Origin: an uncultured Patescibacteria group bacterium
GTDB taxonomy: Bacteria > Patescibacteriota > JACMRA01
Assembly (NCBI GenBank): GCA_938017575.1
Contig: CALIJC010000009.1
Location: forward strand, 1 to 62,989
Direction of reading: 5' to 3'
Length of the DNA: 62,989 nt
Under the pieces are notes generated by a model. The model searched no databases, had not been told where the DNA came from, and saw only the letters and a program-made list of their open reading frames with translations. Made by a program: the position numbers and the translations under genes. This document shows, in pieces, positions 3,519 through 61,720 of the stretch. Each line of letters begins with the position of its first letter. The stretch's first letter is position 1.

Positions 3519-3660
3519 TGAGAAGATATTAAATAGGCTAACTTACAAATTAAATACTATTTATTAGAACACTTCTACTATAGAAATAGGGATAGGTGAC
3601 AGCAACAATAATATGCCCTCTCCCAAAAATAGTCATGGGCAGAGGGCAGTCTGAGAACAG
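3519..3660. repeat. Fragment of the dispersed intergenic repeat family, ending in two abutting inverted type-1 termini
   Basis: The module agatattaaatagg...aaatact resembles 44885-44930 and 48735-48800. The segments gccctctccc (3615-3624) and gggcagagggc (3637-3647) form a palindrome made of the GCCCTCTGCCC terminus seen at 45697, 61260 and (reverse complement) 48891. Confidence 0.6.
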
Positions 3661-7098: not shown

Positions 7099-7138
7099 GC
7101 ATAATATCTTTTATCAAATGTTTTTTACTTTTCTAGAT

Positions 7139-7481
7139 CACCCACCGCTTTTGAATATTTTAGTGAATAATTGAAATCGACCCTGATTTCAATTATTTGC
7201 GTTAAGAAATTTTCATCTAAGTATGGTTTTGTGTAACTTTTTTTAAATTGATGCTACTGTCATCAATTCCTATTTCAATTATAGGAAGTGTTTTTAAAAA
7301 TACACTAAACTATTTAAAATCATAATTAAATCCCATTTCCTAATATACTTTTGGTAAATTGAGGCTACTGCCCTCAATTCCTGTATATGCAAAACTGCTC
7401 TTAAATGAAGTTTTATTAACGCAATTTTCCTAATTCAGGGTCGAATTAGAAAAATCACTAAAACCTTCATGGGTAGAGAGC
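7139..7481. mobile_element. MITE-like element, full copy (about 340 bp) with imperfect terminal inverted repeats of about 85 bp
   Basis: Left arm 7139-7221: cccaccgc...ttttagtgaataattgaaatCGACCCTGatttcaattatttgcgttaagaaattttcat. Right arm 7397-7481 is its inverted counterpart and ends in the reverse complement of gctctctacccatgaagg. Internal twin hairpins are aattgatgctactgtcatcaatt and aattgaggctactgccctcaatt. No ORF. Confidence 0.65.
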
Positions 7482-7515
7482 AATAGAACGAAATCATAAC
7501 CAATATTAATTATAC

Positions 7516-11982: not shown

Positions 11983-12897
11983 TTAACTTTGCGCTTTATG
12001 TTTTTCTATTACTTCTATGATTGGCGTAAATAAATCTGTCTGATAAAGAGTTTCTTTTTGGTTCAAAACAGTCAAAAGCCTTTCATATCCAGCACCCGTA
12101 TCAATGTTTCTCACAGACAAATCAGATAAGTTTTTTGGTTCGCTGTTTTCATCTTTTTCACCCTCATATTGCATGAAAACATTATTCCAGATTTCTACAA
12201 TTTGATTTTCCAAGAAATCCTCAATTTGTTCACCGGACAAATTTCCCAACACCGACTGCTCAAAATCTAATGGGTTTTCATCCATCAAATAATACACTTC
12301 TGAGCATGGCCCACACGGTCCTTTATAAGGGAGACCCCACCAATTATCATTTCCACTTTTTTGAGTTATTCTATAAATATATTTTTGATCTGGTTTGTTG
12401 TTTTCTGGGTTTTTAAAGTCATATTCGACACCTGTTGTTGGCTCCACACCAGATTTATCAAATAAATCCTGCCAAACTTTTATGGCTTCATGATCAGCCT
12501 TAACATCGCCGCAGCCTCTGTAAACTGTAACAAATAATCTACGAGGATCTAATCCTAAATAGTCCGGGCTAGTCAAAAATTCATACGTATATTTGATTGA
12601 ATCTTCTTTGAAATAATCACCTAGTGACCAAACACCCATCATCTCAAAAAAGGTTAGGTGTCGATTGTCGCCAACTTCTTCTATATCTCCAGTTCTAATA
12701 CATTTTTGTAAATTTGCTAAACGATTTCCTGCTGGATGAGTCTGGCCAAGTAAATATGGAATTAGTGGCTGCATTCCAGCAGTTGTAAACAAAACAGTCG
12801 GATCTTCTTTTGGCACTAAAGAGCTTGAAGGAAGTATCGAGTGGTTTTTTGATTCATAAAATTTGATAAATTTCTCTCTGAGTTCTTTGGAGTTCAT
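11983..12897 (-). CDS. Stand-alone alanyl-tRNA synthetase catalytic-core protein (truncated AlaRS homologue)
   Basis: Class II AlaRS N-terminal signature: FIKFYESKNHSILPSSSLVP..DPTVLFTTAGMQ, RHLTFFEMMGVWS and motif-3 region DTGAGYERL. The ORF stops about 40 aa after that. The tRNA-recognition, editing and C-Ala domains are absent. Confidence 0.85.
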   Translation of the reverse strand: MNSKELREKFIKFYESKNHSILPSSSLVPKEDPTVLFTTAGMQPLIPYLLGQTHPAGNRLANLQKCIRTGDIEEVGDNRHLTFFEMMGVWSLGDYFKEDSIKYTYEFLTSPDYLGLDPRRLFVTVYRGCGDVKADHEAIKVWQDLFDKSGVEPTTGVEYDFKNPENNKPDQKYIYRITQKSGNDNWWGLPYKGPCGPCSEVYYLMDENPLDFEQSVLGNLSGEQIEDFLENQIVEIWNNVFMQYEGEKDENSEPKNLSDLSVRNIDTGAGYERLLTVLNQKETLYQTDLFTPIIEVIEKHKAQS

Positions 12898-44645: not shown

Positions 44646-44852
44646 TCACATGGTGGTAATCACCACAGAAAAATGCTCTTTAAATATACTCACAGTTAAA
44701 CTGAATATAATTAAACATGGAAATCTATATTTCAAATTAATAGGCATGGTTAATACTGCGAACATGGCAATTATTACTAATAACTCCAGTGTAACTAAAA
44801 ACAGTAAATAGTTAACATGGATCATAGCAGCCCATGCCACTCCTTTTTTCAC
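44646..44852 (-). CDS. Small membrane protein (hypothetical)
   Basis: 68 aa with 2 hydrophobic helices. Weak call. Confidence 0.3.
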   Translation of the reverse strand: MKKGVAWAAMIHVNYLLFLVTLELLVIIAMFAVLTMPINLKYRFPCLIIFSLTVSIFKEHFSVVITTM

Positions 44853-45000
44853 AAAAAGTAACTTTCAGAAATGTTTTGAAAAAGATATTAAATAGGTAAT
44901 CTATAGATTAAATACTACTTATTTAATACTTTTGATAGCAAAAAGTTACAAAGAGAAACATTAATGAAAAATAGTTCAAAACAATTATGGCTATAAAAAT
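44850..45000. repeat. Fragment of the intergenic repeat family (internal module plus terminator-associated tail)
   Basis: 44855-44960 resembles 48700-48835 (gtaactttcagaa...attaaatag...atttaatacttttgNtaNcaaaag). 44935-45010 resembles 45790-45875 (agagaaacatta..caattat.gctataa.aataaaaaaatcc). Confidence 0.6.
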
Positions 45001-45031
45001 AAAAAAATCCGACTCAGCAGATGCCAAGTCG
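45001..45031 (-). terminator. Minus-strand terminator of the 45056..45355 gene
   Basis: cgact (45010-45014) pairs with agtcg (45027-45031). On the minus strand it is followed by gattttttt. Confidence 0.6.
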
Positions 45032-45055
45032 TGAGTATTGTTGTTGTCCGCCACC

Positions 45056-45355
45056 TCACCAGAGAGCTACTCCTTTAGAGAGAGCCTCCGGAAAGTGGGT
45101 TAGAAATGGAAAGAATAAAAGTCCAGTGCAAACGTAGCATGAGAGTCTAACCCATTTCCCAACAGGGAAAACGGAGAATCCCAAAAAAAACAGCATAATC
45201 CCCAATTCCACGGCTGGGAGGGTGTATATGAAATCCTTCGAAATCATATACCCAGGCAGGAGAGTCATTCCTCCAAAGCAAACAAGCATCAAGGAAATCT
45301 GAAGCTTGGTAGGTGGGGTAGCCTTTTGAAGACGCTGGGACAAGTTTGAGCGCAT
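45056..45355 (-). CDS. Small 3-TM membrane protein (hypothetical), visibly GC-richer than its surroundings
   Basis: Strong SD aaggagga and a consensus promoter upstream. 99 aa. Confidence 0.55.
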   Translation of the reverse strand: MRSNLSQRLQKATPPTKLQISLMLVCFGGMTLLPGYMISKDFIYTLPAVELGIMLFFLGFSVFPVGKWVRLSCYVCTGLLFFPFLTHFPEALSKGVALW

Positions 45356-45383
45356 GGGTAGGATTCCTCCTTACAACCCCTTA

Positions 45384-45553: not shown

Positions 45554-45620
45554 GTCATCCTGAATTTAGTTCAGGATCCAGTATCGTTAAATTAGATTCC
45601 GGATCAAGTCCGGAATGACG
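45554..45620. repeat. Two GTCAT...GGATYC-type palindromic hairpin units
   Basis: gtcatcctgaatttagttcaggatcc (45554-45579) and gattccggatcaagtccggaatgac (45595-45620). Same family as 52576-52834. Confidence 0.6.
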
Positions 45621-45694
45621 CACATACCTATCTTATCTATTGTATAAAAAATCTAATTTCTCTATTAGTGCTTCAAATCAAATTATTTTACCAA

Positions 45695-45870
45695 TATGCC
45701 CTCTGCCCATGAGAATTTTAGTGAATAATTAAATCGACCCTGATTTAAATTATTTGCGTTAAGAAATTTTCATTTAAGAGTGATTTTGCGTAACTTTTTT
45801 CACAAAAAGCTACTAAGAGAAACATTAAAGAAAAACAATTCAAAGCAATTATAGCTATAAGAATAAAAAA
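45695..45870. repeat. Partial MITE-like copy (type-1 arm only) plus terminator-associated tail module
   Basis: The arm atgccctctgcccatgagaattttagtgaataattaaatCGACCCTGatttaaattatttgcgttaagaaattttcatttaagag is nearly identical to the arm at 61260-61345. No opposing arm is found. Confidence 0.6.
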
Positions 45871-45887
45871 ATCCGGTTTTAACCGGA
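45864..45887 (-). terminator. Rho-independent terminator of gyrA
   Basis: The minus strand reads tccgg ttaaaa ccgga followed by ttttttt. Confidence 0.7.
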
Positions 45888-45911: not shown

Positions 45912-48485
45912 TTAAACCACACTACCACTGACAACACTATCTGATTTATGTAGTCTAATAACCTTGATTCCTTGTGTATTTCTACCTAATTGACTGATGT
46001 CTTCTGGAGAGATTCTAATAGTAACACCTTTTTTGGTAGTAACAATCAAACTTTCTTCTTGGCCATCTAAAATTTGCACCAATACTGGTTTCCCTGTTTT
46101 CTTGGTCATGTTTAGAGTTTTGACTCCACCAGCAGCTCTCTTGGTTTTCCTGTAGCCATCTAAATATGTTTGTTTTCCAAATCCATTCTCAGTCACAACC
46201 AATAGAGAAGGGTAGGCTTTGTCTCCTGATTTCTCATCCTCAACCAAGGCATTATCTTTTGCATCACCCTCAGCCTCGTCGCCGCTAGCAAAGTTGAAAT
46301 TAGCGATCTGTAAACTAATTATATGATTATCTTTCTTGAGTCTCATTCCTTTGACACCTTGGGCAGTTCTACCAAGCGGGTTTAATTGTGTTCTATCAAA
46401 AATCACAGTCTTACCATTGTCAGCCGATAGAACAATCTTATCCTCATCGCTAGTAGATAAACATACAGCCATTACACGGTCATCGTCTTTTAATCCAATT
46501 GCAATAATTCCAGTTTGTCGCACATTTTTGAAATCGCTCAATTTAGTTCTCTTCACTAATCCATTATTGGTTGCAAAGATAATTGAACCTTGTTGATCTT
46601 CTTCGATTTCTTTGGTTACGGTTAATATTGTGCTAATATTTTCACCTTCACGTAAATTAAAGTAATTAATCAAAGCTTGACCTCTACCAACACGTGAACC
46701 GCTAGGCATTTCAAACACACGAGTTCTAAACACTCTACCCAAATTAGTAAAGGCGTAGATGTAATCATGTGAATTAGCAATCATGCTAGCTTTGACCCAG
46801 TCTTCGTCTTTTGGATTGAAACTAGTAACTCCAACACCGCCTCGACCTTGCTGCCGGAAATTGGTAATAGGGAGTACCTTGATGTATTGTGATTTAGTTA
46901 GTTGAATCAAAACTGTTTCATCCACAACAAAATCTTCTTTATTGTAATCGCCGACTTTGTGCTCAATAATTTCGGTTCGACGTGGAGATTTTAATTTGTC
47001 ACCCATATCAGTTATTTCCTTGGTAATCAAAGCTTTTTTCACTTCTGGGTTTTCCAAAATTTCTTTTAATTCACCGATTAGTTTCAATTTTGCTTCTCGC
47101 TCATCTTCTATCTTGGATTTGTCCAAATTAGTTAGAGTCTGTAGTCTCATTTGCAAAATAGCTTCGGCCTGCCTCTCAGATAATTTAAATCTTTCCTGGA
47201 GTTTTTTGCTAGCTTCTTCTTTGTCGTAAGAACCTCTGATTAGTTTAATTACCTCATCAATGAAATCTAGTGCGATTTTCAAACCATCCAAAATATGCAG
47301 TTCATCTTCAGCCTTTTTAAGGTCATATTTTGTTCTTCTGACTACAACTTCATCTCTATGAGCTAGGTATTCTTTGAGGATTTCAACCAAGGTTAGTAAT
47401 TTTGGCTGGCGACCTCGGTTGACCAAAGCTAACATGTTGAAATGCAAATTGGTCTGTAAATCTGATAGTTTGTACAGCTGATTCAAAATAACCTCAGGGC
47501 TAGCGTCTCGTTTACATTCGATAACAACTCTGATTCCATCTTTGTTAGATTCATCTCGGATATTTCTAATCCCAGTAATTCTCTTGTCATTAACTAATCC
47601 GGCAATTTTAACCAACAAATCAGCTTTGTTAACCTGGTATGGAATTTCGTGAACAATAATTCGGTTTTCAGTTAGTTCAACTTTGGAACGCAAAGCGCAT
47701 TTTCCTCGACCAGTTTTGTAGGCGTTTAAAATATCAGATTTTCCATAAATAATACCTCCTGTAGGCACATCTGGTCCTTTGATAAATTCCATCAAATCTT
47801 CGGCAGTAGCTTCTGGGTTGTTGAGCAAGTGAATTATCGCACCAATAACCTCATTTAGATTGTGTGGTGGAACTTCAGTGGCCATTCCAACAGCGATTCC
47901 AGTTTGACCGTTGACGATTAGGTTAGGGAATAAAGCTGGTAAAACCTGAGGCTCTCTTTGGCTGGCGTCATAGTTATCAACGAGGTCTACTGTGTCTTTC
48001 TCAATATCCTGGACAATAAATGTAGACGGTTTACCCATTCTACACTCGGTGTACCTCATACTCGCTGGGTTATCTCCATCGATTGAACCAAAATTTCCTT
48101 GACCATCAACTAATGTGTATCTGACTGAAAAATCCTGAGCTAAACGAGCTAGCGCGTTGTAAACAGAAGCGTCTCCGTGAGGGTGATATTTACCCAAAAC
48201 ATCTCCAACTACACGGGCACATTTCATGTATTTACTACCTGGAGTTAGGTTTAGTTTGTGCATTGCGTAGATAATTCTACGGTGAACTGGTTTTAGTCCA
48301 TCACGCACATCTGGAAGAGCACGGGAAACAATAACGCTCATAGCATACGATAGGTATGATGTCTTCATTGTTTCTTCAAGCATCTTTGGCTCGACCCGGT
48401 CTTCTAAAGATTGTCCGATAATATCTTCAACTGAATTATCTCCTTCATTTATTTGATTGTTCTCAGTAGTTACCTCGTTTGACAT
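45912..48485 (-). CDS. gyrA: DNA gyrase subunit A
   Basis: AMSVIVSRALPDVRDGLKPVHRR, YHPHGD, active-site region, C-terminal beta-pinwheel repeats. 857 aa. Confidence 0.98.
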   Translation of the reverse strand: MSNEVTTENNQINEGDNSVEDIIGQSLEDRVEPKMLEETMKTSYLSYAMSVIVSRALPDVRDGLKPVHRRIIYAMHKLNLTPGSKYMKCARVVGDVLGKYHPHGDASVYNALARLAQDFSVRYTLVDGQGNFGSIDGDNPASMRYTECRMGKPSTFIVQDIEKDTVDLVDNYDASQREPQVLPALFPNLIVNGQTGIAVGMATEVPPHNLNEVIGAIIHLLNNPEATAEDLMEFIKGPDVPTGGIIYGKSDILNAYKTGRGKCALRSKVELTENRIIVHEIPYQVNKADLLVKIAGLVNDKRITGIRNIRDESNKDGIRVVIECKRDASPEVILNQLYKLSDLQTNLHFNMLALVNRGRQPKLLTLVEILKEYLAHRDEVVVRRTKYDLKKAEDELHILDGLKIALDFIDEVIKLIRGSYDKEEASKKLQERFKLSERQAEAILQMRLQTLTNLDKSKIEDEREAKLKLIGELKEILENPEVKKALITKEITDMGDKLKSPRRTEIIEHKVGDYNKEDFVVDETVLIQLTKSQYIKVLPITNFRQQGRGGVGVTSFNPKDEDWVKASMIANSHDYIYAFTNLGRVFRTRVFEMPSGSRVGRGQALINYFNLREGENISTILTVTKEIEEDQQGSIIFATNNGLVKRTKLSDFKNVRQTGIIAIGLKDDDRVMAVCLSTSDEDKIVLSADNGKTVIFDRTQLNPLGRTAQGVKGMRLKKDNHIISLQIANFNFASGDEAEGDAKDNALVEDEKSGDKAYPSLLVVTENGFGKQTYLDGYRKTKRAAGGVKTLNMTKKTGKPVLVQILDGQEESLIVTTKKGVTIRISPEDISQLGRNTQGIKVIRLHKSDSVVSGSVV

Positions 48486-48520: not shown

Positions 48521-48555
48521 TAGGATGAAAAGAAATTTAACGATTTCCTAATTCC

Positions 48556-48903
48556 AAATTGCCCACCGCTTTGTAACTTTTTAGTTATTTTTCAGAGACG
48601 ACCCTGGCTTTGAAAAATAGCGTTAAGAAAAGTTACTCTAGGTCTGGGATCCCAAAAAATCTAAGATTTTTAAGGTGCCCTGGTCTGGTTTTATGTAACT
48701 TTTACCTCCTAAAGTGACTTTCAGAAGTATTTTAAGAAATATATTAAATAGCTTAAGTTATAAACTAAAGATAATTTTATTTAATACTTTTGCTATCAAA
48801 AGTATTACAAAACTACTCTTAATTATAGATTTATTAACGTAATTTCTCTAATCCAGAGTCGAATCAGAGAAACCACTAAAATCTATAAAGGCAGAGGGCA
48901 AGT
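48556..48903. mobile_element. MITE-like element, full copy (about 345 bp)
   Basis: Type-2 arm at 48561: gcccaccgctttgtaactttttagttatttttcagagaCGACCCTGgctttgaaaaatagcgttaag. The inverted type-1 arm ends ..gattcgactctggatt.. / ggcagagggcaag at 48891-48903. The interior contains the perfect hairpin aatacttttg ctat caaaagtatt. Confidence 0.65.
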
Positions 48904-48930
48904 GGAACAAAAAAAGAAAGAATTAAGCTG

Positions 48931-48959
48931 TTGACAAAGTCTGAAAAATAGGGTAAGAT
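48931..48959 (+). promoter_or_regulatory. Promoter TTGACA-N17-TAAGAT
   Basis: TTGACA at 48931-48936 and TAAGAT at 48954-48959. Confidence 0.65.
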
Positions 48960-48965
48960 TTGTAC

Positions 48966-49238
48966 ATGACTTGAGGTGGGTTTACCTTTATCGCAGTCCC
49001 ATTTGTTGGGGATCTTAGGCGAGCCAGTCACAAAACTGGTCACAATACATGTAGCTCATTTTCCGGGAAAGTTATCATGACTAGCTGTCATACGGTAGTG
49101 TGTATTCTACCAGCCCCCGTGCGATAACAAAGGCATAGTCTAATTATGTTGACTAATCAGTCCGGGAACAGTCCAGAAAGTTCCACCCCGTCATACCAAA
49201 TACCCTGTTGCAATCTAGCTCAGGGTATTTATCATTTT
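48966..49238 (+). ncRNA. Candidate structured RNA of about 270 nt, class unknown, upstream of der
   Basis: Visibly GC-richer than its flanks. No credible ORF: the track ORF from 49208 is only the der upstream extension. Closing helix: 48966-48970/49190-49194 plus 48975-48979/49183-49187. Second long-range helix: 48985-48995/49120-49133. Local hairpins: 49024-49039, 49094-49111 and 49136-49155. Terminator hairpin ataccctg/cagggtat (49200-49228) followed by ttatcatttt. Confidence 0.55.
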
Positions 49239-49294
49239 ATATATTTTCTATTCTGTTGACATTTTTGCATATCTATGACAGGTTGATTATTAAT

Positions 49295-51259
49295 ATGACC
49301 CAACCTAAAATCCCAACTGTTGCCTTGTTTGGATTACCTAATTCTGGTAAATCAACACTTCTCAACAGATTAACTGAATCTAAAAAAGCCATTGTTGCTC
49401 GTGAGGCTCACACAACCCGTGATATTAATTATGGTGAGGTTGAGTGGGATGGTTACTATTTCAAATTAGTTGATACAGGTGGTTTGGTGCCGGATCCCAA
49501 AGACAAAATTCAAAAACAAATCCAAATAAAATCTTGGGTGGCTCTGGAGCAAGCTGATATATTAGTATGGGTAATCGATCGCAAACAAAACCCAGAAACT
49601 ATTCATGAATCCATAATCCAAAGAGTTTGGAAAACAGGTAAACCAGTCACAATTTGTATTAACAAAGTAGACGATCCCAATATGGACGCCAGTGTCGGAG
49701 ACTACGCCCACCTCGGAGGTTTTGATTTTGTGAATATTAGTGCTACTACCAGCTATGGTACGGACAAACTACTCGATGGAATTATCAAAAAAATGGGTGA
49801 ATTAGGTTTTGAACCAGTTTCTCACCAAGAACTACCAAGCGATCAAATACTAGATAGTAAATATAAAAAAAAGAAATCCAAAAAGCTAACTCGAGACAAA
49901 GAAGGCAATTTTGTAGTCTTGCGTGAAAATACCGAAGATGGGCCAGGTCTGTTTTATTCCAGCCAAGAATCTCAAATCGTTAACCCAATTGATAACATTA
50001 TTACCGATATTGGTGGGGTAGTGACTGCTGATAATATCATCAACGAAGAGTACGTCGAGCAATTAAAATCCCTCAAAGAAAGCGGAGCTAGTTTATATTA
50101 TTTAACAACCTTCACCCAGGTACAATTAGACCCAATCATCGAAAAACTTCCTGATTTGTTTGATGGAGGTTTATGCAAGGATGATACCAAATGGACAAAA
50201 CCTGATCCGTACGTTTACCGTGAGCTAGCTGAAAAGTACAATTTTGAACCTAGTAAATCTATTTTTATTGACGACAGTCAAACCAATGTTGTGGCAGCTA
50301 GAGAAGTCGGTTTTTTTGGGATCCATTATCTATATGGCAAAACAAATATCTCAGCTATTTACGAAGAAATTATTTCAGGGCAATTAAACAAAATTCCAAA
50401 CCCTCCCAAAGTCCTTTTTATCGGTAAGCCAAATGTAGGAAAATCAAGCCTGTTTAATAGTATGATTGGTGAGGAAATTCAGATTGTAACTGACGTAGCT
50501 GGTACTACAATTAGCGTAAATGATACTCTATTAAACCGTGAGGTGTTTCATAATTTCCGGTCCGAGGATGGGTTTGTTAATATTTCCACTCCAGTTTCCA
50601 AAGACTACGTACTGCTAGATTCTACCGGAGTTCGTAAACCTGGGCAAAGAACCATGGGCGCTGAATCATTTGCCACCTTTAGAACTATTCAAGCAGCTCA
50701 CGAGTCAGACGTAATTTGTCTAATCATGGACGCTACAACACCTTTGACACACCAAGATCAAGTTGTCGCAGGTATTTGCCAAGAAGCAGGTAAGGGTATT
50801 GTTTTGGTAATAAATAAAATGGATATTGTTGATGCCGAGCAAAAACAGGCCTTTTTGAAAAGTTTCCACCATAAATTCGCCTTCTTGAAAATCGATAACA
50901 CAGTATTTGTTTCAGCCAAAGAAAATATTGGCATGAGAGAATTATGGCAATCAATTGATTTGGCACTGGAAGACAGGAAAAAAACCATCTCCAGAGAGCA
51001 GGTTCGAAAACTTTTCAATTACCTGATGAAAAAAAAGAGGCCAAACAAATTACGAAACAAAAAACGACCTGTCATCTACGATTTATTGTACAAACAGTCC
51101 AGCCCGCCAACTTTTGAATTATTAGTCAAAGACAAAGAAGCAATTCACTGGTCATGGGTCAGGTTTCTAGAAAACCAAGTCCGCCGACAATTCCGTTTCA
51201 CAGCCTCTGGAGTCAAAATCAAACTAGTAGAGGTAGACAGAAAAAACGTAGCTAAATAA
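49295..51259 (+). CDS. der: Ribosome-associated GTPase Der/EngA with a roughly 200-aa inter-G-domain insertion carrying a HAD-like domain
   Basis: ATG at 49295 (MTQPKIPTVALFGLPNSGKSTL). GD1 has INKVD. GD2 has GKPNVGKSSL and INKMD. C-terminal KH-like domain. Insert at about 49805-50407 with HAD-IA-like motifs IITDIGGV, LYYLTT, TKPDPYVY and IFIDDS. Confidence 0.9.
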   Translation: MTQPKIPTVALFGLPNSGKSTLLNRLTESKKAIVAREAHTTRDINYGEVEWDGYYFKLVDTGGLVPDPKDKIQKQIQIKSWVALEQADILVWVIDRKQNPETIHESIIQRVWKTGKPVTICINKVDDPNMDASVGDYAHLGGFDFVNISATTSYGTDKLLDGIIKKMGELGFEPVSHQELPSDQILDSKYKKKKSKKLTRDKEGNFVVLRENTEDGPGLFYSSQESQIVNPIDNIITDIGGVVTADNIINEEYVEQLKSLKESGASLYYLTTFTQVQLDPIIEKLPDLFDGGLCKDDTKWTKPDPYVYRELAEKYNFEPSKSIFIDDSQTNVVAAREVGFFGIHYLYGKTNISAIYEEIISGQLNKIPNPPKVLFIGKPNVGKSSLFNSMIGEEIQIVTDVAGTTISVNDTLLNREVFHNFRSEDGFVNISTPVSKDYVLLDSTGVRKPGQRTMGAESFATFRTIQAAHESDVICLIMDATTPLTHQDQVVAGICQEAGKGIVLVINKMDIVDAEQKQAFLKSFHHKFAFLKIDNTVFVSAKENIGMRELWQSIDLALEDRKKTISREQVRKLFNYLMKKKRPNKLRNKKRPVIYDLLYKQSSPPTFELLVKDKEAIHWSWVRFLENQVRRQFRFTASGVKIKLVEVDRKNVAK

Positions 51260-51521: not shown

Positions 51522-52307
51522 TTAGTCTAGGACAACCAGCTTGGGGTTTACTCCTCCCAGATGATTTCTCATCAAGAAAGTGTATAATGCCCAAACATCC
51601 CACCAGCCCATTCGGATACATCCGTGAGACTTATAGACTTGAGCAACTGTCTCGGGAGGTCGAGAACAACCAGGCGATTGACCCTGGAGAGGATTGTCCC
51701 CAAAGTAGTCAACTGGATTTGAATTTTGCAAATACTCCGCTTGCCGAGACTTAGAACACAAGCTCACATTGCTGTGGAATGCATTCACAAAGTCTCCCTT
51801 CCGTAAAGGTCTATTATCCCCCTCCGGCTTGAAAAACATCGTACACCATGTGGCGTGCGTCCTGTTCCCCCATGGAACTAGATCTACAAATTGTTCAGGA
51901 ACCTTTTTCTGAGTTCCTTCCAGGAGAGAGTATTTGTATATCTTACAAAACCCCTCCGAATTGACTTCACAGTCCTTACCACCATCGCCAGTAGCAACTG
52001 TTTTTGGAATTGGCATAGTCCGCCAATCGAACTGATACCGACCAGGCTGGATTCGGTAGGTTCTGTTCTGGGTCGGGCCCATGAATGGGTATCTGGTGAT
52101 ACCTCCAGCACCATTGTTAACCCAAATCTCGAGCCGCTTTTGACTGAGAAAGACTGTAGGTTTGTCAACAGAGTACACAACATCTGGAATTCCAGACTGA
52201 GCTGCAGCAGCTCGGGTGAATGAATCAAAGATCTTGGGAGCAGCTGCAGATGCCGCCCCCAATCCTAGAAATTTAAGAAATTTTCTTCTAGAAAGTTGGG
52301 TGGACAT
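51522..52307 (-). CDS. Tat-signal protein with L,D-transpeptidase (YkuD)-like catalytic motif
   Basis: Twin-arginine signal SRRKFLKFLGLGAASAAA. SHGCIRM near the C-terminus. SD caggagga. Visibly GC-rich. Confidence 0.6.
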   Translation of the reverse strand: MSTQLSRRKFLKFLGLGAASAAAPKIFDSFTRAAAAQSGIPDVVYSVDKPTVFLSQKRLEIWVNNGAGGITRYPFMGPTQNRTYRIQPGRYQFDWRTMPIPKTVATGDGGKDCEVNSEGFCKIYKYSLLEGTQKKVPEQFVDLVPWGNRTHATWCTMFFKPEGDNRPLRKGDFVNAFHSNVSLCSKSRQAEYLQNSNPVDYFGDNPLQGQSPGCSRPPETVAQVYKSHGCIRMGWWDVWALYTFLMRNHLGGVNPKLVVLD

Positions 52308-52351
52308 CGTGCTCCTCCTGTATATGGTAATATATCCTCAACTATGCCTAA

Positions 52352-52380
52352 ATTATAGCATAGTTTTAGCCTATTGTAAA
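52352..52380 (-). promoter_or_regulatory. Promoter TTTACA-N17-TATAAT
   Basis: The reverse complement reads TTTACA ataggctaaaactatgc TATAAT. Confidence 0.65.
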
Positions 52381-52575
52381 GAGTAAAAACCCTCAAACCT
52401 CTTTCTTTTTAGCTGATATTTATGCAGAGTCTATCTAAAAATTTTAATTGCTATTAGTAGCTGCGAAATCCATTTTTTTAAATCAAATTTATCTCATTTT
52501 TTCAAGGGATTAACATTAATTTTATAGCTACAATAAGACTTTTACCTAGAAGTCGGTTATTACATTAATTTGCAT

Positions 52576-52834
52576 GGATTCCCAGTCAAGCTGAGAATGA
52601 CTTTATGCTTTGTCACTGCTTATTATAGCTTGTCATTCCAGACTCGACGGGCTTCCAGCAACAACTACGAAGTAGCTTTGTAGGGGTTTAGTCACGATCC
52701 GGAATCCAATATTTAGTTATCTGGCGGATCCTGAATCAAGCTCAGGATGACTTATTTATTAAGCGTTTTCGTGGATTCCCAGTCAAGCTGAGAATGACAT
52801 TGAATTTTGTCATACCAAACTTGATTTGGTATCC
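52576..52834. repeat. Cluster of at least 6 GTCAT...GGATYC palindromic hairpin units
   Basis: ggattcccagtcaagctgagaatgac occurs twice (52576-52601 and 52773-52798). Also present: ggatcctgaatcaagctcaggatgac, gtcattccagactcgacgggcttcc, gtcacgatccggaatcc and gtcataccaaacttgatttggtatcc. A related single unit lies at about 51424-51447. Confidence 0.65.
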
Positions 52835-52930
52835 AGTTTATAAAAAAAGATATAAAAAAAAACGACACATAGATTAACTATATGCCGTCAGTAGGGAACA
52901 CTATTTCAAATTCAGACACATGGTCTAATT

Positions 52931-54172
52931 CTAAAATAAGTTCGCGGGCTTCTCCTGCTTTCGTACAGGGACACTCTGAACAGTTCTGCTAGGTGGGTTT
53001 ACCACCGAGTTGTCCTGTGCTGGAGGCTGGCTCCGAACAGGTTGACGCTGTACAGGTGTTCGTCGAGTTACAGGCTGCCGTTTAATTTGGCGCTGCGGAG
53101 TTCTACGAACCTGAACCGTGCCGTCGACACAGTCTGAGAAGTTGGTGTCGCCTTGCGCCACCATCTCGTCTACAATAGACTTAGCTAATGCTGCTGCATC
53201 AGCCAAAGACTGGCCATCTCGACCCTTGATTCCGCGAGACCTAATGTCTGCGGTTAATAGCCGCTCCATTCTGGTATACATAATCCGTCTTGCGACTGGA
53301 TTATGGGCATGCCTCGAGAGGCGTGCCAAGCCGGATTCGGCCTTGGAGATGATGATCTCAGCAAGGAGTTCCTGCTGTGAAGGGTGGATCATTCCGGCGG
53401 TTGCCCGTCCGAAATTAAACCCTCCCAGAAAACCTGCATCTACACCAACGTTAGTCGAAGTCTTGCCATCGGCAATGTTGTACTTGACATACTTCGGGCC
53501 AGATCCTGGAATACAGATGATATCACCAATGGTGCTACCATTGCTGTCACCGAAGTTGGTGACATTGGTACGGTTACGAGAAAACGATCTAGCGTCAGTT
53601 TCCCGACTGCTAGAATCTGTGACATTCAAGTTCACATCACCGGCGTTAACGTCACCTTGTTTAACACCGACGTTGTTCTCGGAGTTTGTACCAAGGTTAT
53701 TGTCACCAGTCCGGGTAGGCCCGGTTGTAACATCAGTCTTTGAAGACTGGCCAAGTGAGTTATTAATTGGTCCACTACCAGAGTTGATATCTCCGATAGT
53801 TGTACCAGCATTGATGTTGTTTTCATTATGACCATTAAGGCCATTTTTTATGTCAGTAACACTAGCATCATGTTGGTTCAGGGTCGAACTTGCCCCAGAC
53901 TGAGACTTTGGACTAAATGCACCATCTCCACCAACAGAAATGTCATTCTCGTTATTCGAAGACTGACCCTGTTGGGTCTTGATGAACTGCTGGTACTCCA
54001 GCCACTGCTGTGGCGTGAGAGTGTTTGTGTTGCCATTATGATTCTCAGAGTGCTGTCCTTGCTGGACTCCACCTGCATTAGCAGGTAACAATGAAGTGAA
54101 CAGGACTGTTCCTGAGGCAGCAACAGAGCAAAAGGTTACTCCAAGGATAGAAAAAAGACGTGTAGTTTTCAT
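52931..54172 (-). CDS. Secreted Asn/Gly/Ser/Thr-rich protein with Pro/Arg/Gln-rich C-terminus (hypothetical)
   Basis: ATG at 54172 (MKTTRLFSILGVTFCSVAASG...ANA) preceded by ggaga. Degenerate G-D-x-N type repeats (IGDINSGSG, TGDNNLGTN, KQGDVNAGDVNLNV, FGDSNGSTIGD). Chosen over five overlapping ORFs in other frames. Confidence 0.65.
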   Translation of the reverse strand: MKTTRLFSILGVTFCSVAASGTVLFTSLLPANAGGVQQGQHSENHNGNTNTLTPQQWLEYQQFIKTQQGQSSNNENDISVGGDGAFSPKSQSGASSTLNQHDASVTDIKNGLNGHNENNINAGTTIGDINSGSGPINNSLGQSSKTDVTTGPTRTGDNNLGTNSENNVGVKQGDVNAGDVNLNVTDSSSRETDARSFSRNRTNVTNFGDSNGSTIGDIICIPGSGPKYVKYNIADGKTSTNVGVDAGFLGGFNFGRATAGMIHPSQQELLAEIIISKAESGLARLSRHAHNPVARRIMYTRMERLLTADIRSRGIKGRDGQSLADAAALAKSIVDEMVAQGDTNFSDCVDGTVQVRRTPQRQIKRQPVTRRTPVQRQPVRSQPPAQDNSVVNPPSRTVQSVPVRKQEKPANLF

Positions 54173-54292
54173 GATTTTCTCCAACCCCCGTATAGGGGAA
54201 CGTGTATAGTGTGTAAAACAACTCAAAAAAAACTAAACAATCCCAAAGGTTACCCAGTGGCCTGCCTAGTTATGATTTTTCAAGTTACTCTA

Positions 54293-54593: not shown

Positions 54594-56735
54594 ATGGCAA
54601 AAAAAACAATCGCAGAAACTCTGAAAAATAGTAATAAAAACGAGCCAGGTGTCAAAAAATCATCTGCAAACAGAAAAAGGCTAACAATTGGTTCAGCCAA
54701 AAAAAATCGTGCCAAAATTCCAAAAATCACCAAGATTTTCAAAAAGAAACCTACCGAAGTTAACAAAGAAAAATCCAAAGAAGCGCTGGAAACAGTAAAA
54801 ACTCGCCGAGCCATTAAAAAAGCTAATCCCAACGAATTAGTTACTCGTAAAGGTATTTTGGGGCTGAATTTGACCAGTACTGCTGATGCTAACAGAAAAA
54901 AAGCCTTGGCTGATGATTCAATCGAACAACGTGGTTCACGTCGTTACCGTGTAACCGAAGATGGTGTCAAAGTAAAGATGAAGAAGATTACCAAAAAAAG
55001 GACTTCTAAATCCAAAAAAAGAACCCTCAAAAAGTTCATTGAAAACGACGACGCTTTATACCCAGAGTTCCAAAAACAACCAGAAAAGTTCAAAAAGAAT
55101 GTTATCGAGGTTATTAAACAAGGTGTAACTCGTGGTTTCGTCACCGAAGATGAGCTATTGTATCTAATCCCAAATCCTGAAAATAATATTGAACTGGTCG
55201 AAGACATTATGGATCTTTGTGAGGACAGCGGTTCTCCAGTCAAATTCGATAGTACTTTGGATACTCTGTGGGATGCTCTGCAAAATGAAGAAGAAGTCAA
55301 AAAACGTGAAATCGAACTAGCTTCCAAATTAAAAAACTCTCTCGCAGGTGATGTTTCTGGGTCAGATCTCAAAGATGATGCTGTTCAAAACTACATTCGT
55401 GATATTTCTAGGTATCCTTTGCTAGCCAAAGAAGAAGAGGTTGAACTAGCCAAAAGGATTGAACAAGGGGATCAAGCAGCTAAATTAACACTTTGTAATT
55501 CCAACCTTCGTTTGATTGTTCACTCCGCTAAAAAATACATGGGTCGAAACCTAGCGTTTTTAGATTTGATTCAAGAAGGTAATATTGGTTTACTCCGTGC
55601 AGTTGAAAAATTCGATTGGAGACGTGGTTATAAATTCTCAACCTACGCCAGCTATTGGATTGACCAAAGTATCCGCCGCGCCTTGGCTGATCAATCTCGT
55701 CCAATTAGACTACCTGTTCACGTTGAAGAAAAACTAAACAGGTTCAAAAAAGAAAAAAGAGCTTTGGTTGATTCACTAGGTAGAGAACCAAGCGACGAAG
55801 AAATAGCAGAGAAATTGGAGGTAGATATTGACACAGTCTATTATTTCAAGAGGATCTCTCAGGATACAGTTTCTATCGATACAATGGTCGGGCACAGCGA
55901 AGATAGTGATACCCAAGTTGTTGAAACTATCGAAGACAACCGAACAGCCCCTCCTATTGATGTAGCAAGTAATAAAATCTTGCGTGATTACATGATGGAG
56001 ATCGTTGATGATTGTCTAGAGCCACGTGAAAAAAAGGTTATCTTGCTTCGTTTTGGTTTGGACGGTACTGGAGTAGCTCATACATTAGAGGAAATTGGAG
56101 AAGTTTTCCAAGTAACACGTGAGCGTGTTAGACAGATTGAAGAGGTTGCCTTGAATAAAATCAGACAACACCCAAGTAGCTATAAATTGGTAGATTTCTT
56201 GGAAGGTATTCATCCACAAACATTTGCACCAAGTAGCTACAAGAAAGAAAACGAGGTTGAGCTGGATATTCAATTCAACAAAAAAATTGACCTGGAAAAA
56301 GTCGTGGCTACTATTGTTGAGCAAATCAATACAAATAAATGTAGTTTGTATTTCCTTCGTGGAGATATGGGGGTAGGTAAAACTACAATCGTTCAAAATG
56401 TCTGCAAAAAAATCAGCACTATCGAAGAAGCAACTAGCCCAACTTATGCGTTAATGCAAAAATATAAACTTAGCAGCGGAAGCAGTGCCAGAAATACTGG
56501 TAATTTCGAAGAAGTTGTTCACATGGATTTACATAGATTGAAACAATTATCTCAAGAAGATCTAGGCTGGATAGAAGAAGAATTAATCAATACAAACAAT
56601 GTGATTTTTGTGGAATGGCCAGAAAAACTACTCAAAAAACAACATTTAATTCAGTTCCTTGGTAGAAAATTCCTAATAATTGAATGTAAGATTGGTAAAA
56701 AAGGAGATCATTATTTCAGAATCAAAGAGAATTAA
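54594..56735 (+). CDS. rpoD: RNA polymerase sigma-70 (RpoD-type) fused in frame to a C-terminal TsaE (YjeE) P-loop ATPase domain
   Basis: Lys-rich N-terminus. Region 2: DLIQEGNIGLLRAVEKFDWRRGYKFSTYASYWIDQSIRRA. Region 4.2: TLEEIGEVFQVTRERVRQIE. From about 56259: LYFLRGDMGVGKTT...ATSPTYALMQKY...HMDLHRL...FVEWPE, which is the TsaE signature. A single uninterrupted 713-codon ORF. Confidence 0.9.
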   Translation: MAKKTIAETLKNSNKNEPGVKKSSANRKRLTIGSAKKNRAKIPKITKIFKKKPTEVNKEKSKEALETVKTRRAIKKANPNELVTRKGILGLNLTSTADANRKKALADDSIEQRGSRRYRVTEDGVKVKMKKITKKRTSKSKKRTLKKFIENDDALYPEFQKQPEKFKKNVIEVIKQGVTRGFVTEDELLYLIPNPENNIELVEDIMDLCEDSGSPVKFDSTLDTLWDALQNEEEVKKREIELASKLKNSLAGDVSGSDLKDDAVQNYIRDISRYPLLAKEEEVELAKRIEQGDQAAKLTLCNSNLRLIVHSAKKYMGRNLAFLDLIQEGNIGLLRAVEKFDWRRGYKFSTYASYWIDQSIRRALADQSRPIRLPVHVEEKLNRFKKEKRALVDSLGREPSDEEIAEKLEVDIDTVYYFKRISQDTVSIDTMVGHSEDSDTQVVETIEDNRTAPPIDVASNKILRDYMMEIVDDCLEPREKKVILLRFGLDGTGVAHTLEEIGEVFQVTRERVRQIEEVALNKIRQHPSSYKLVDFLEGIHPQTFAPSSYKKENEVELDIQFNKKIDLEKVVATIVEQINTNKCSLYFLRGDMGVGKTTIVQNVCKKISTIEEATSPTYALMQKYKLSSGSSARNTGNFEEVVHMDLHRLKQLSQEDLGWIEEELINTNNVIFVEWPEKLLKKQHLIQFLGRKFLIIECKIGKKGDHYFRIKEN

Positions 56736-60001: not shown

Positions 60002-61180
60002 CTAATGATGGTGTGAATGTCCATGGCTATTGTCTACTGCCAGTTCTTTTTCACTAAATTTATGATTTGCAAAAACCATTGCAGCCAAAAAACTACTAAT
60101 TGGAACAGAGATAACTAGAGCTGATGATCCAACCAGAATCTGAATTATTTCCTGGGTCAGAATTTCTGTGTTTAGGGTGAGCCAAAATGGCTGGAAATCA
60201 TTATTCACAAAAGCCAGTAAAAGAGGTAGAGAAGAACCAACATAAGCAAATGCTAGGGTGTTCACCAGAGAGGCAATATGTTCTTTTCCAACCACGATAG
60301 ATCTAGAATAAAGTTCTGTTAATCCAAATTTCTCATTGGCTTTTTTGAGCTGTTCAACCACAGCAGCCTGAGCCGTAGTTATATCATCTAAAACACCTAG
60401 GGCACTAATTAAAATCCCACCCAAAAACAAAGCCTTTAAATTAATCTCTCCTCCTCCGCTAAACTGCAAGGCCTGAGCTTCTTCGGTTCCTCCACCAGAG
60501 ATTTTAGCGACATTTGTAAATATAACTGCGATGATGGCTGCAATAATCAAGGTAATATAACTACTAAGTAAAGCAGTGTGAGTTCGACGATTAAAACCAT
60601 GAGCTAAATAGAATGAAATTATCCCAGCTAGTGCTACAGTAACCACTGCCACAAAAATCGGGTTAACTCCGTTATAAATCTGCGGTACCATGTAAAACAC
60701 AATAACCAAAATACTAGCCATAAGTCCCAGAATCGAGAAAAATCCCTTGCGCCGTGCCAACAAAATAACCATCAATAGAAATACCCCAAAAATAAATATA
60801 ATAGCGTTTAGTCTGTATCTATCTACATAAAAAAATGTATCTTCTTCCGGATAAAACCCGACAACTATTGTCTCTCCTTCTTCTAATTTATTTTGATTTC
60901 CATTCCTAACCAAAGTGTTTACAGCCACATCGACTTCTCGCTCCTTGTTTTCACCCTCTAAAATTTTTACAGTTGCAATCTGGCTCTCACCTCCAAAAAA
61001 CAGTCCATCTGCTATTTCTTCGCTAGCCTTGTCGTCAACTTCGATTACTCTAGCTTTGATATAATCAGCCTTCTGCGGCTCTGTATCTTGGTTTTCTTGG
61101 GCAATTGTAGGAATGACAAAAGAGAAAACCATCGACAATAAAAATAAGCCAAAAAATAATTTGGTAATAATTCTTTTCAT
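60002..61180 (-). CDS. YibE/F-like multi-TM protein with C-terminal His-rich tail
   Basis: Signal peptide, N-terminal extracytoplasmic domain, about 7 TM helices. Ends ..NSHGHSHHH. ATG at 61180 (MKRIITKLFF). Confidence 0.7.
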   Translation of the reverse strand: MKRIITKLFFGLFLLSMVFSFVIPTIAQENQDTEPQKADYIKARVIEVDDKASEEIADGLFFGGESQIATVKILEGENKEREVDVAVNTLVRNGNQNKLEEGETIVVGFYPEEDTFFYVDRYRLNAIIFIFGVFLLMVILLARRKGFFSILGLMASILVIVFYMVPQIYNGVNPIFVAVVTVALAGIISFYLAHGFNRRTHTALLSSYITLIIAAIIAVIFTNVAKISGGGTEEAQALQFSGGGEINLKALFLGGILISALGVLDDITTAQAAVVEQLKKANEKFGLTELYSRSIVVGKEHIASLVNTLAFAYVGSSLPLLLAFVNNDFQPFWLTLNTEILTQEIIQILVGSSALVISVPISSFLAAMVFANHKFSEKELAVDNSHGHSHHH

Positions 61181-61215: not shown

Positions 61216-61254
61216 CAACCATTCTCCTCAAATTTGTAGAATTATCTTCCGTTC

Positions 61255-61562
61255 CAATTGCCCTCTGCCCATGAGAATCTTAGTGATTATTAGAAATCGA
61301 CCCTGATTTCTAATAATTGCGTTAATAGATTTTCATTTAAGAGCAGTTTTACCTATACTTTTGCTGCCAAAAGTATAATGAGGTGGAGCATTAAAATTAT
61401 ATTAAATTGTGAAGGGTATTTTCAGAAAACATCTTCCTTTCATTACTTTTTGTAAAAAAAGTAACACAAAATCACACCTAGAGTAACTTTTCTTAACGCT
61501 ATTTTTCAAAGCCAGAGTCGTCTCTGCAAAATAACTAAAAAGTTACAAAGTGGTGGGCAACT
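61255..61562. mobile_element. MITE-like element, full copy (about 305 bp), opposite orientation to the 7139 and 48556 copies
   Basis: The type-1 arm starts at 61260: gccctctgcccatgagaatcttagtgattattagaaatCGACCCTGatttctaataattgcgttaatag. The inverted type-2 arm ends caaagtggtgggcaa at 61560. Confidence 0.65.
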
Positions 61563-61720
61563 AGCAAAAACTTATCTATCATCAATTCCCAAATTAGAAA
61601 CTTTACGTCAAGAAATTTTCATTTAGTAAATTGATACTCAGGTTATCAATTTACGGTTTTGTAATACTTTTGCTATCAAAAGTATTAAAAGAAATAGTGT
61701 TTATTTAATAGATTCAAACC
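61563..61720. repeat. Additional repeat-family modules adjoining the MITE-like copy
   Basis: Contains aagaaattttcatttag, a hairpin aattgatactcaggttatcaatt, and the perfect palindrome aatacttttgctatcaaaagtatt, identical to the one inside the 48556-48903 copy. Confidence 0.5.

Follow-up and report, generated by a model that had tools for sequence, protein, structure and literature searches.

The window analyzed here is a whole contig of 62,989 nt, and all copy counts given below refer to those 63 kb. It carries three full elements of a repeat family, together with one solo arm, one remnant and interior-type modules that have no arms. The genes flanking the three full elements are unrelated housekeeping genes: element A (7134–7487, plus strand) lies between the stop codon of purL (7516) and the promoter-like site and ATG (7062) of tsaD, element B (48555–48905, plus strand) lies between the divergent genes gyrA (ATG at 48485) and der (49208), and element C (61254–61564, minus strand) lies between the terminator of a 110-aa ORF (61754–61729) and a yibE/F-like gene (ATG at 61180). 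Every full copy has the end or the terminator of the upstream gene on one side and the promoter-like site of the downstream gene on the other. At 311–354 bp the full elements fall below the ~600 bp of a MITE and are, like a MITE, non-coding; the ORFs inside them are just 20–42 aa long, and none is kept in frame between copies.

For the census of the arms, we used the motif TTAGT-N11-14-CGAYYCTG-N11-14-RCGTTAA, which was distilled from the three regions pointed out in an earlier note on this DNA. The motif matched seven times in the window, versus 0.00 matches expected from 100 dinucleotide-preserving shuffles, and the positions form three inverted pairs (7160+/7416-, 48581+/48834- and 61280+/61493-) with 45718+ left unpaired. 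A covariance model of the arm (R1) scored the seven arms at 98–107 bits and the best other match in the window at 12 bits. The arms were also grouped independently by a repeat finder (family D1; inverted pairs I1–I6, 63–102 nt, 71–93% complementary). Each full copy has one GCCCTCTGCC-type tip (type 1) and one GCCCACCGC-type tip (type 2). Element A consists of the plus-strand arm A_L (7134–7232; type-2 tip ACCCACCGC; 99.2 bits) and the minus-strand arm A_R (7389–7487; type-1 tip GCTCTCTACC; 105.1 bits) around its interior. The corresponding arms of element B are B_L (48555–48653, plus strand; type-2 tip; 99.4 bits; inverted pair I1) and B_R (48807–48905, minus strand; type-1 tip; loop CGACTCTG; 103 bits), and those of element C are C_L (61254–61352, plus strand; type-1 tip; 106.6 bits; fold z = -8.6) and C_R (61466–61564, minus strand; type-2 tip GCCCACCAC; loop CGACTCTG; 102.4 bits). 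With C reversed, the three elements align end to end, interiors included, at 75% column identity; they are copies of one composite unit whose polarity runs from the type-2 to the type-1 tip.

The earlier note had reported three full copies, each with one end of either type; both points held, with the ends refined to the coordinates above, and its statement that the third copy is inverted relative to the other two was borne out by reading and by alignment. Missing from its description were two further, outer helices of the arm, the solo arm and the remnant, and its claim that the family occupies most of the long intergenic regions was overstated, since arms are found in just 4 of the 13 gaps of at least 300 nt in the ORF map.

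The solo arm S and its tail modules (45692–45875, plus strand) lie just past the intrinsic terminator of gyrA (45887–45872) and comprise a type-1 arm (45692–45789; 98.3 bits), a short hairpin GTAACTTTTTTCACAAAAAGCTAC and a 73-nt module. The same 73-nt module is found at two sites (44939–45011 and 45803–45875; 89% identical), each of them directly downstream of a different minus-strand intrinsic terminator (45031–45010 and 45887–45872). The degenerate copy at 3523–3648 contains an interior module (3523–3586, 72% identical to 48738–48801) followed by a tip-only palindrome TGCCCTCTCCC-N8-TCATGGGCAGAGGGCA (3615–3648), of which 16/16 nt match the tips of S and C_L. At 44843–45011, between two small minus-strand ORFs, there are armless modules of the interior type (families D2, D3 and D5), and a stand-alone short hairpin module ATACTTTTGCTATCAAAAGTAT at 61656–61710 is 84–100% identical to 48759–48813 inside element B. 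The tail of B_L has a 41-nt insertion relative to C_R (48648–48688), which is bounded by a 7-nt direct repeat GGTCTGG (48641–48647 and 48682–48688) and contains a small palindrome, AAAAATCT-A-AGATTTTT.

Only short contigs with identical sequences were reached through exact-protein matches to GyrA, TsaD and the 110-aa ORF. Copies B and C and the solo arm were recovered in independent assemblies (L033 for B, L070 for C) at 99.9–100% identity, so they are not assembly artefacts. Other contigs of the same population (ERR9287622, ERR9287624 and ERZ6864144) break inside the arms. Among the three available assemblies, we found neither an insertion polymorphism nor an empty site.

Arm anatomy, covariation and strand polarity

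Read from the tip inward, the arm is one extended three-helix hairpin of ~99 nt, longer than the ~85 bp given in the earlier note. In helix P1, the GC-rich tip pairs with an AAGAG or AGGTG tail, and helix P2 has 9 bp. Between P2 and P3 is an asymmetric internal loop with an invariant TTTTAGT on its 5' side and GCGTTAA on its 3' side. Helix P3, described earlier as a stem of 10–12 bp, contains 12–13 variable bp, or 17 pairs with the conserved G:C and wobble pairs at its flanks included, and is closed by the invariant apical loop CGACYCTG (CGACCCTG in five arms, CGACTCTG in two). The inner hairpin and its flanks, with TTTTAGT / GCGTTAA as a conserved foot, make up 46 nt.

The pairing of the helices is kept while their sequences change. 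In the alignment of the seven arms, 94.3% of the pair cells hold standard pairs, compared to 76.4% in column shuffles, and none of 500 shuffles reached the observed value; sliding the partners by 1–3 columns lowered the paired cells to 41–48%. Changes on both sides were seen in 16 of the 33 pairs of the three helices, and the tip type is compensated in the tail, with CTCT facing AGAG and CACC facing GGTG (pairs 11-89 and 13-87). Fixed across the arms are the tip, TTTTAGT, the CGACYCTG loop and GCGTTAA alone. Such free stems with fixed unpaired parts are the signature of a structure that is read by a trans-acting factor. The suggestion of the earlier note that the conserved loop hints at recognition thus gained support, with a conserved loop and bulge on variable stems pointing to a folded structure as what is recognized.

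The two arms of one element are 57–65% identical, and same-type arms of different elements reach 88%, as for B_L and C_R (88% overall, 97% in the body). What is conserved is the local hairpin of each arm, and neither the left-right complementarity that a foldback requires nor the sequence of a TIR. Because arms of the same element are only this similar while pairing within themselves at 94%, their behavior is that of self-folding palindromic units as in REP/BIME, and does not match TIRs that a transposase binds through a conserved sequence. The body of A_L is 92% identical to that of solo arm S, although the tip of S is type 1 and that of A_L type 2; A_L is therefore chimeric, joining a type-2 tip to a body like that of a type-1 arm, which is evidence that copies have recombined or undergone conversion.

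The hairpins also have a polarity. An A:C cell is a would-be G:U pair on the opposite strand, and P2 and P3 together contain 26 G:U(T) cells and 0 A:C cells. Leaving out three conserved wobble positions, there are eight variable wobble cells that represent about six independent changes, all on the same strand; in arm B_R, six G:U pairs can be read from the sequence, four of them in the inner stem. In 7/7 arms, and with both RNA and DNA parameters, the complement is less stable than the tip-to-inward strand, the mean fold energies over the seven arms being -27.4 (sense) versus -18.1 kcal/mol (complement) as RNA and -11.9 versus -9.5 kcal/mol as DNA, and the z-scores of the sense-strand RNA range from -1.7 to -8.6. 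These strand-biased wobbles and stabilities indicate that the arms were selected as single-stranded folds of defined polarity. Since the arms of one element are inverted, their functional strands differ. The bias is larger with RNA (~9 kcal/mol) than with DNA parameters (~2.4 kcal/mol) and fits a role at the RNA level at least equally well.

Host lineage, searches for relatives and other features of the contig

The TsaD homologues whose source carries an informative name come from Candidatus Gracilibacteria, SR1 and another Patescibacteria MAG (51–60% identity), the best TsaD identity in the protein collection being about 58–60%. The gene order is common to the Gracilibacteria contig JAAUOJ010000010.1 and to JGI contigs. 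From these gene-level similarities, we take the host to be a Gracilibacteria-related CPR bacterium. The 55 stop codons of the contig ORFs comprise 43 TAA, 10 TAG and 2 TGA. UGA recoding as in Gracilibacteria and SR1 (code 25) was excluded for the host, which uses the standard genetic code because the long ORFs have no in-frame TGA. The syntenic Gracilibacteria contig L059 has fragmented gene calls, and its tsaD fails to give the query protein under the translation table used, which we take as a sign of UGA recoding there.

Relatives of the arms were sought at several levels. The arm pattern gave 31 matches in the 185,579 species genomes of GTDB (596 Gb), 25 in JGI metagenomes and 5 in IMG/VR, all of them without hairpin stems; we rejected these matches as homologues and attribute them to chance or to conserved coding sequence, for example in a Pseudanabaena gene. 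A distant-mode BLASTN search with element B against plasmids and phages returned nothing relevant. On ~50 kb around tsaD in the nearest relatives (L059–L063), the covariance model R1 scored at most 18 bits, in a match that was non-homologous on inspection. An alignment of the translations of outward-reading arms, searched against 5.8 billion proteins to reach other copies through spurious ORFs at contig edges, gave no match. With Rfam 15, only tRNA-Phe reached the gathering score in the window, and among the matches overlapping the elements none had E <0.04, all being far below the gathering thresholds. Ribozymes and riboswitches were dismissed on architecture or for want of an Rfam match. As far as can be seen in public collections, the family would be private to the host lineage.

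No transposase, recombinase or HUH domain was found among the window ORFs of at least 100 aa, in agreement with the earlier statement that the window has no transposase, which now extends to recombinase domains. A 431-aa ORF coincides with a stretch of raised GC content (52001–54226; 0.44 versus ~0.35 for the contig) and was considered as a transposase; it was rejected as such, as its product is of low complexity and probably secreted, has a hydrophobic segment at its N terminus and finds no match in Pfam, NCBIfam or the PDB.

This ORF adjoins a cluster of 26-nt hairpins, which make up a second REP-like family in the contig. Each consists of GTCAT, a 6-bp stem, the loop RCTTGAY, the complementary 6-bp stem and ATCC, and they are located at 45554–45579(+), ~45596–45621(-), 52576–52601(-), 52726–52751(-), 52773–52798(-) and 52809–52834(+). 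The exact pattern occurs in 4 copies versus 0.01 expected, and the stems covary (TCTCAG/CTGGGA, CCTGAG/TTCAGG, ACCAAA/TTTGGT and TCCGGA/TCCGGA). The flanks, GTCATTCC...GGAATC, resemble the dRS3/RS motif of Neisseria.

Other parts of the contig deserve mention in their own right. In a single 713-aa ORF at 54594–56735 (plus strand), sigma-70 regions 1.2 to 4 are joined to a TsaE domain at the C terminus, giving an RpoD-TsaE fusion. The Der/EngA protein encoded at 49208–51259 (plus strand) has a HAD-hydrolase domain between its two GTPase domains (residues ~263–383). The alanyl-tRNA synthetase homologue at 11983–12897 (minus strand) comprises ~300 aa of the N-terminal catalytic part; a short alanyl-tRNA synthetase is also found in related contigs (L060 5399–6301; L063 946–1857), which makes this short version a conserved one and not the product of a local truncation. 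Some 240 nt between element B and der (48964–49207) look richer in G+C than their surroundings and follow a strong promoter-like TTGACA-17-TAAGAT (48931–48959), and they have neither an Rfam match nor unusual folding (z = -0.5). Finally, a GC-rich stretch at 45000–45360 was considered as an ncRNA and is better explained as a 99-aa ORF with a promoter-like site, a GGAGG before the ATG and a terminator.

Favored reading and rival explanations

The arm architecture, the two tip types and the conserved loop confirm that this is a genuine dispersed non-coding family, as the earlier note had proposed. We tentatively read it, with a probability of roughly 45%, as a REP/BIME/REPIN-like structured repeat that would be recognized in its folded, single-stranded form and be spread in trans. 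Its features fit the REP/BIME/REPIN type better than a DDE-type MITE, given the inverted, self-folding units of two types around a conserved linker, the singlets and remnants, the drifting stems, the strand-specific fold, the lack of target-site duplications and the extragenic location. The units come in pairs, as in REP/REPIN/BIME systems (three inverted doublets, one singlet and one remnant), and all seven arms in the 63-kb contig are extragenic palindromes. We do not claim membership among REPs or REPINs, since the unit size differs and both a GTAG foot and a whole-element hairpin are absent.

The strand bias and the position of the elements between genes would also be expected if the arms acted as RNA-level cis elements or as a small-RNA family, the hairpins serving as a barrier to read-through, a protector of 3' ends or a site for RNase III or an RNA-binding protein that insulates the downstream promoter, and a host function maintaining the elements however they spread. 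G:U is tolerated and A:C is absent, the sense strand is the more stable one as RNA by the margin given above, and, because the arms are inverted, transcription from either side would meet a sense arm first. GTTTTG follows the outer helix in four arms, with close variants in two more. From the outer arm end to the ATG of the next minus-strand gene there are 71 nt for tsaD, 69 nt for gyrA and 73 nt for the yibE/F-like gene, and all full copies end ~40 nt before the promoter-like site; each of these genes has a TTGNNN-18 nt-hexamer-5/6 nt-ATG arrangement, a leaderless-type geometry, and in gyrA the hexamer may instead represent a Shine-Dalgarno sequence. Elements face the downstream gene in either orientation, and the constant spacing of 69–73 nt was seen in three cases. 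Arm A_R begins 28 nt past the purL stop codon, where no other terminator is predicted. On the other hand, A_L, C_L and S are antisense to all predicted local transcription and yet are conserved equally well, and canonical intrinsic terminators elsewhere in the contig mean that the arms are not needed for termination. There is also no conserved promoter outside the tips and no Rfam match, and we regard this explanation as unlikely.

We likewise doubt that the elements are classical MITEs, that is, internally deleted DDE-type ISs whose transposase is encoded elsewhere and binds the tips and subterminal motifs as dsDNA TIRs, the hairpins being incidental. Such an origin would account for small, non-coding, dispersed elements with inverted ends and two conserved tip types, for the absence of a transposase from the window, as in a non-autonomous element, and for the conservation that runs ~6 nt past the tips (outer consensus GTTCCAATT). 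It is harder to reconcile with the arms themselves: those of one element are just 57–65% identical and carry two tip types, their stem sequences vary with pairing kept, and a bias of G:U over A:C is unexpected for a DDE transposase that binds dsDNA. Target-site duplications, which the earlier note had suggested looking for, were searched as direct repeats of 2–10 nt at boundaries from -2 to +15 nt outside the tips, and none is common to the three copies, which are old enough for such duplications possibly to have decayed. The autonomous element with the same termini to which the earlier note had pointed is absent from the window, and the exact arm motif lies beside no transposase in the 596 Gb of genomes, the JGI metagenomes or IMG/VR. 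The MITE label of that note holds in part: it suits a dispersed, small, non-coding repeat with no transposase in the window, and is at odds with the lack of target-site duplications, the 57–65% likeness of the arms and the strand-specific pairing. Tn3-type 38-bp inverted repeats were dismissed on architecture, the ACGTTAAG motif being all that they have in common with the arms.

A bolder version, which we consider improbable, would make the arm an undescribed motif (three helices, a 2x6 internal loop and a fixed CGACYCUG at the apex) to which a protein specific to the CPR lineage would bind; the doublets would then be orientation-independent insulators, maintained by the host 69–73 nt from the ATG and upstream of leaderless-type promoters, and not a selfish repeat. 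An inverton, in which a site-specific recombinase would flip the ~150-bp interior between the inverted arms and thereby switch the adjacent gene, would suit inverted arms around a short interior directly upstream of genes and the fact that one copy out of three faces its downstream gene the other way round, but is highly improbable given that no recombinase is nearby, the promoter-like sites lie outside the elements, the adjacent genes include housekeeping gyrA and tsaD, the orientation is the same wherever more than one assembly spans an element, and a solo arm exists.

The unit is bipartite: from its type-2 arm it runs through one short hairpin, an AT-rich core that is conserved and another short hairpin to the inverted type-1 arm. 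Under the REP-like reading, a protein encoded elsewhere in the genome would recognize the folded single strand from the tip inward, either as ssDNA exposed at replication or as RNA, and the same protein would have copied elements or single arms into permissive sites between the end of an upstream gene and the next promoter. The likeliest enzyme would not create target-site duplications; HUH/Y1 enzymes (RAYT or IS200/IS605 type), whose transposition leaves none, would be an example. The trans-acting enzyme, the single-stranded substrate and mobility, ongoing or past, are what we infer from these features. The solo arm, the tip-only remnant and the chimeric arm would be the mixed population expected of an evolving REP-type family. 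Counting against this reading are the absence of an HUH/Y1 or other candidate enzyme from the 63 kb, the modest number of three full copies and seven arms in the contig, and the 57–88% identity of the copies, with no sign of recent activity. REP-like spread and the RNA-level reading are compatible, as a selfish origin and a role in the host can coexist.

Patescibacteria (CPR) genomes are small and usually described as repeat-poor, and our literature search found no REP- or MITE-type family described for them. Seven large covarying hairpins in 63 kb, together with the 26-nt family, suggest that structure-recognizing repeat systems are at work in these reduced genomes too, and the 26-nt family, as a second case on one contig, hints that the phenomenon may be more general in the host genome. 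The arm model R1 is a probe with which the host can be binned and scaffolded and, given more of its genome, the partner enzyme sought; it is useful for binning and scaffolding because independent assemblies break inside the arms. If the strand-specific fold does belong to an RNA- or ssDNA-protein system, it would offer a new handle on gene expression or genome maintenance in an uncultivated lineage.

Comparison with known repeat systems

In BIME-1 (RIB/RIP) of Escherichia coli, two REP palindromic units, Y and Z1, are inverted around a conserved linker. The family described here is likewise extragenic and non-coding, with two types of self-folding unit inverted around a conserved center, mosaic and solo derivatives and no target-site duplication. 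In contrast to the ~35-nt single hairpins of BIME-1, its arms have ~99 nt, three helices and a conserved apical loop; the elements measure 310–355 bp instead of ~100 bp, have no GTAG/CTAC foot and reside in a CPR host, and no RAYT was seen. Compared to known REPs in general (unit ~20–40 nt), the arms are two to four times longer and also lack the GTAG foot.

Correia/NEMIS elements of Neisseria, ERIC/IRU of enterobacteria and BOX and RUP of pneumococcus are bacterial MITE families with structure at the RNA level, and elements of this type are often co-transcribed with neighboring genes. They share with the present family an intergenic location, a size of 100–350 bp, inverted ends, long hairpins, restriction to a lineage and, in some cases, modularity. 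However, they have short, sequence-conserved TIRs and usually target-site duplications (TA for Correia), and their hairpin arises from pairing of the two ends, whereas the present elements yielded no target-site duplication and have a separate covarying hairpin at either end.

The likeness to REPINs, the REP doublets of Bertels & Rainey, lies in an inverted doublet of palindromic units as the replicating unit, in sequences that vary while the hairpin is kept and in singlets that occur as remnants (PMC3116915, PMC3337134). The spacers of REPINs vary in sequence with their hairpin structure retained (PMC3337134), and their movement is attributed to RAYTs that act on single strands in folded form (PMC3116915, PMC3337134; for HUH enzymes see PMC6006769). 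A folded single-stranded substrate is presumed for both REPINs and the family here; no Y1_Tnp or other transposase match, as a RAYT gene flanked by the repeats would give, occurs in the window. A REPIN (~89 bp) folds as one near-perfect hairpin, left half on right, whereas each arm here pairs with itself (94%). IS200/IS605 ends and the non-autonomous PATEs derived from them, whose HUH enzymes work on hairpins of ssDNA, have subterminal imperfect hairpins with conserved unpaired bases that are strand-specific, without target-site duplications or classical TIRs, and in these respects they resemble our arms (PMC6006769). We rejected an IS200/IS605-derived PATE since the end hairpins of IS200/IS605 are on the same strand and the arms of each element here on opposite strands; no tnpA or tnpB is present either.

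TIGR arrays are tandem 36-nt units with unpaired spacers beside a Nop-domain Tas gene (PMC12045711); this identity was discarded, as our elements are dispersed rather than tandem, their variable segments are fully paired and no Nop-domain protein was found. Integron attC sites, whose folded bottom strand carries the core sites R'' RYYYAAC and R' GTTRRRY at its base, were rejected too: the hairpin base read from the sequence is GCCCTCT / AGAGCAG, neither GTTAAGA nor GTTAATA conforms to GTTRRRY, and an AAC partner is missing.

Lineage-specific structured repeat families, such as REP/BIME, ERIC, Correia, BOX, RUP and others, are common in bacteria. The family described here adds a new, lineage-specific case to the REP/BIME- or MITE-like repeats that many bacteria carry. 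It stands out by the size of its arms and their three-helix design, by strong covariation combined with a strand bias, by its host and by the constant distance that separates it from downstream start codons.
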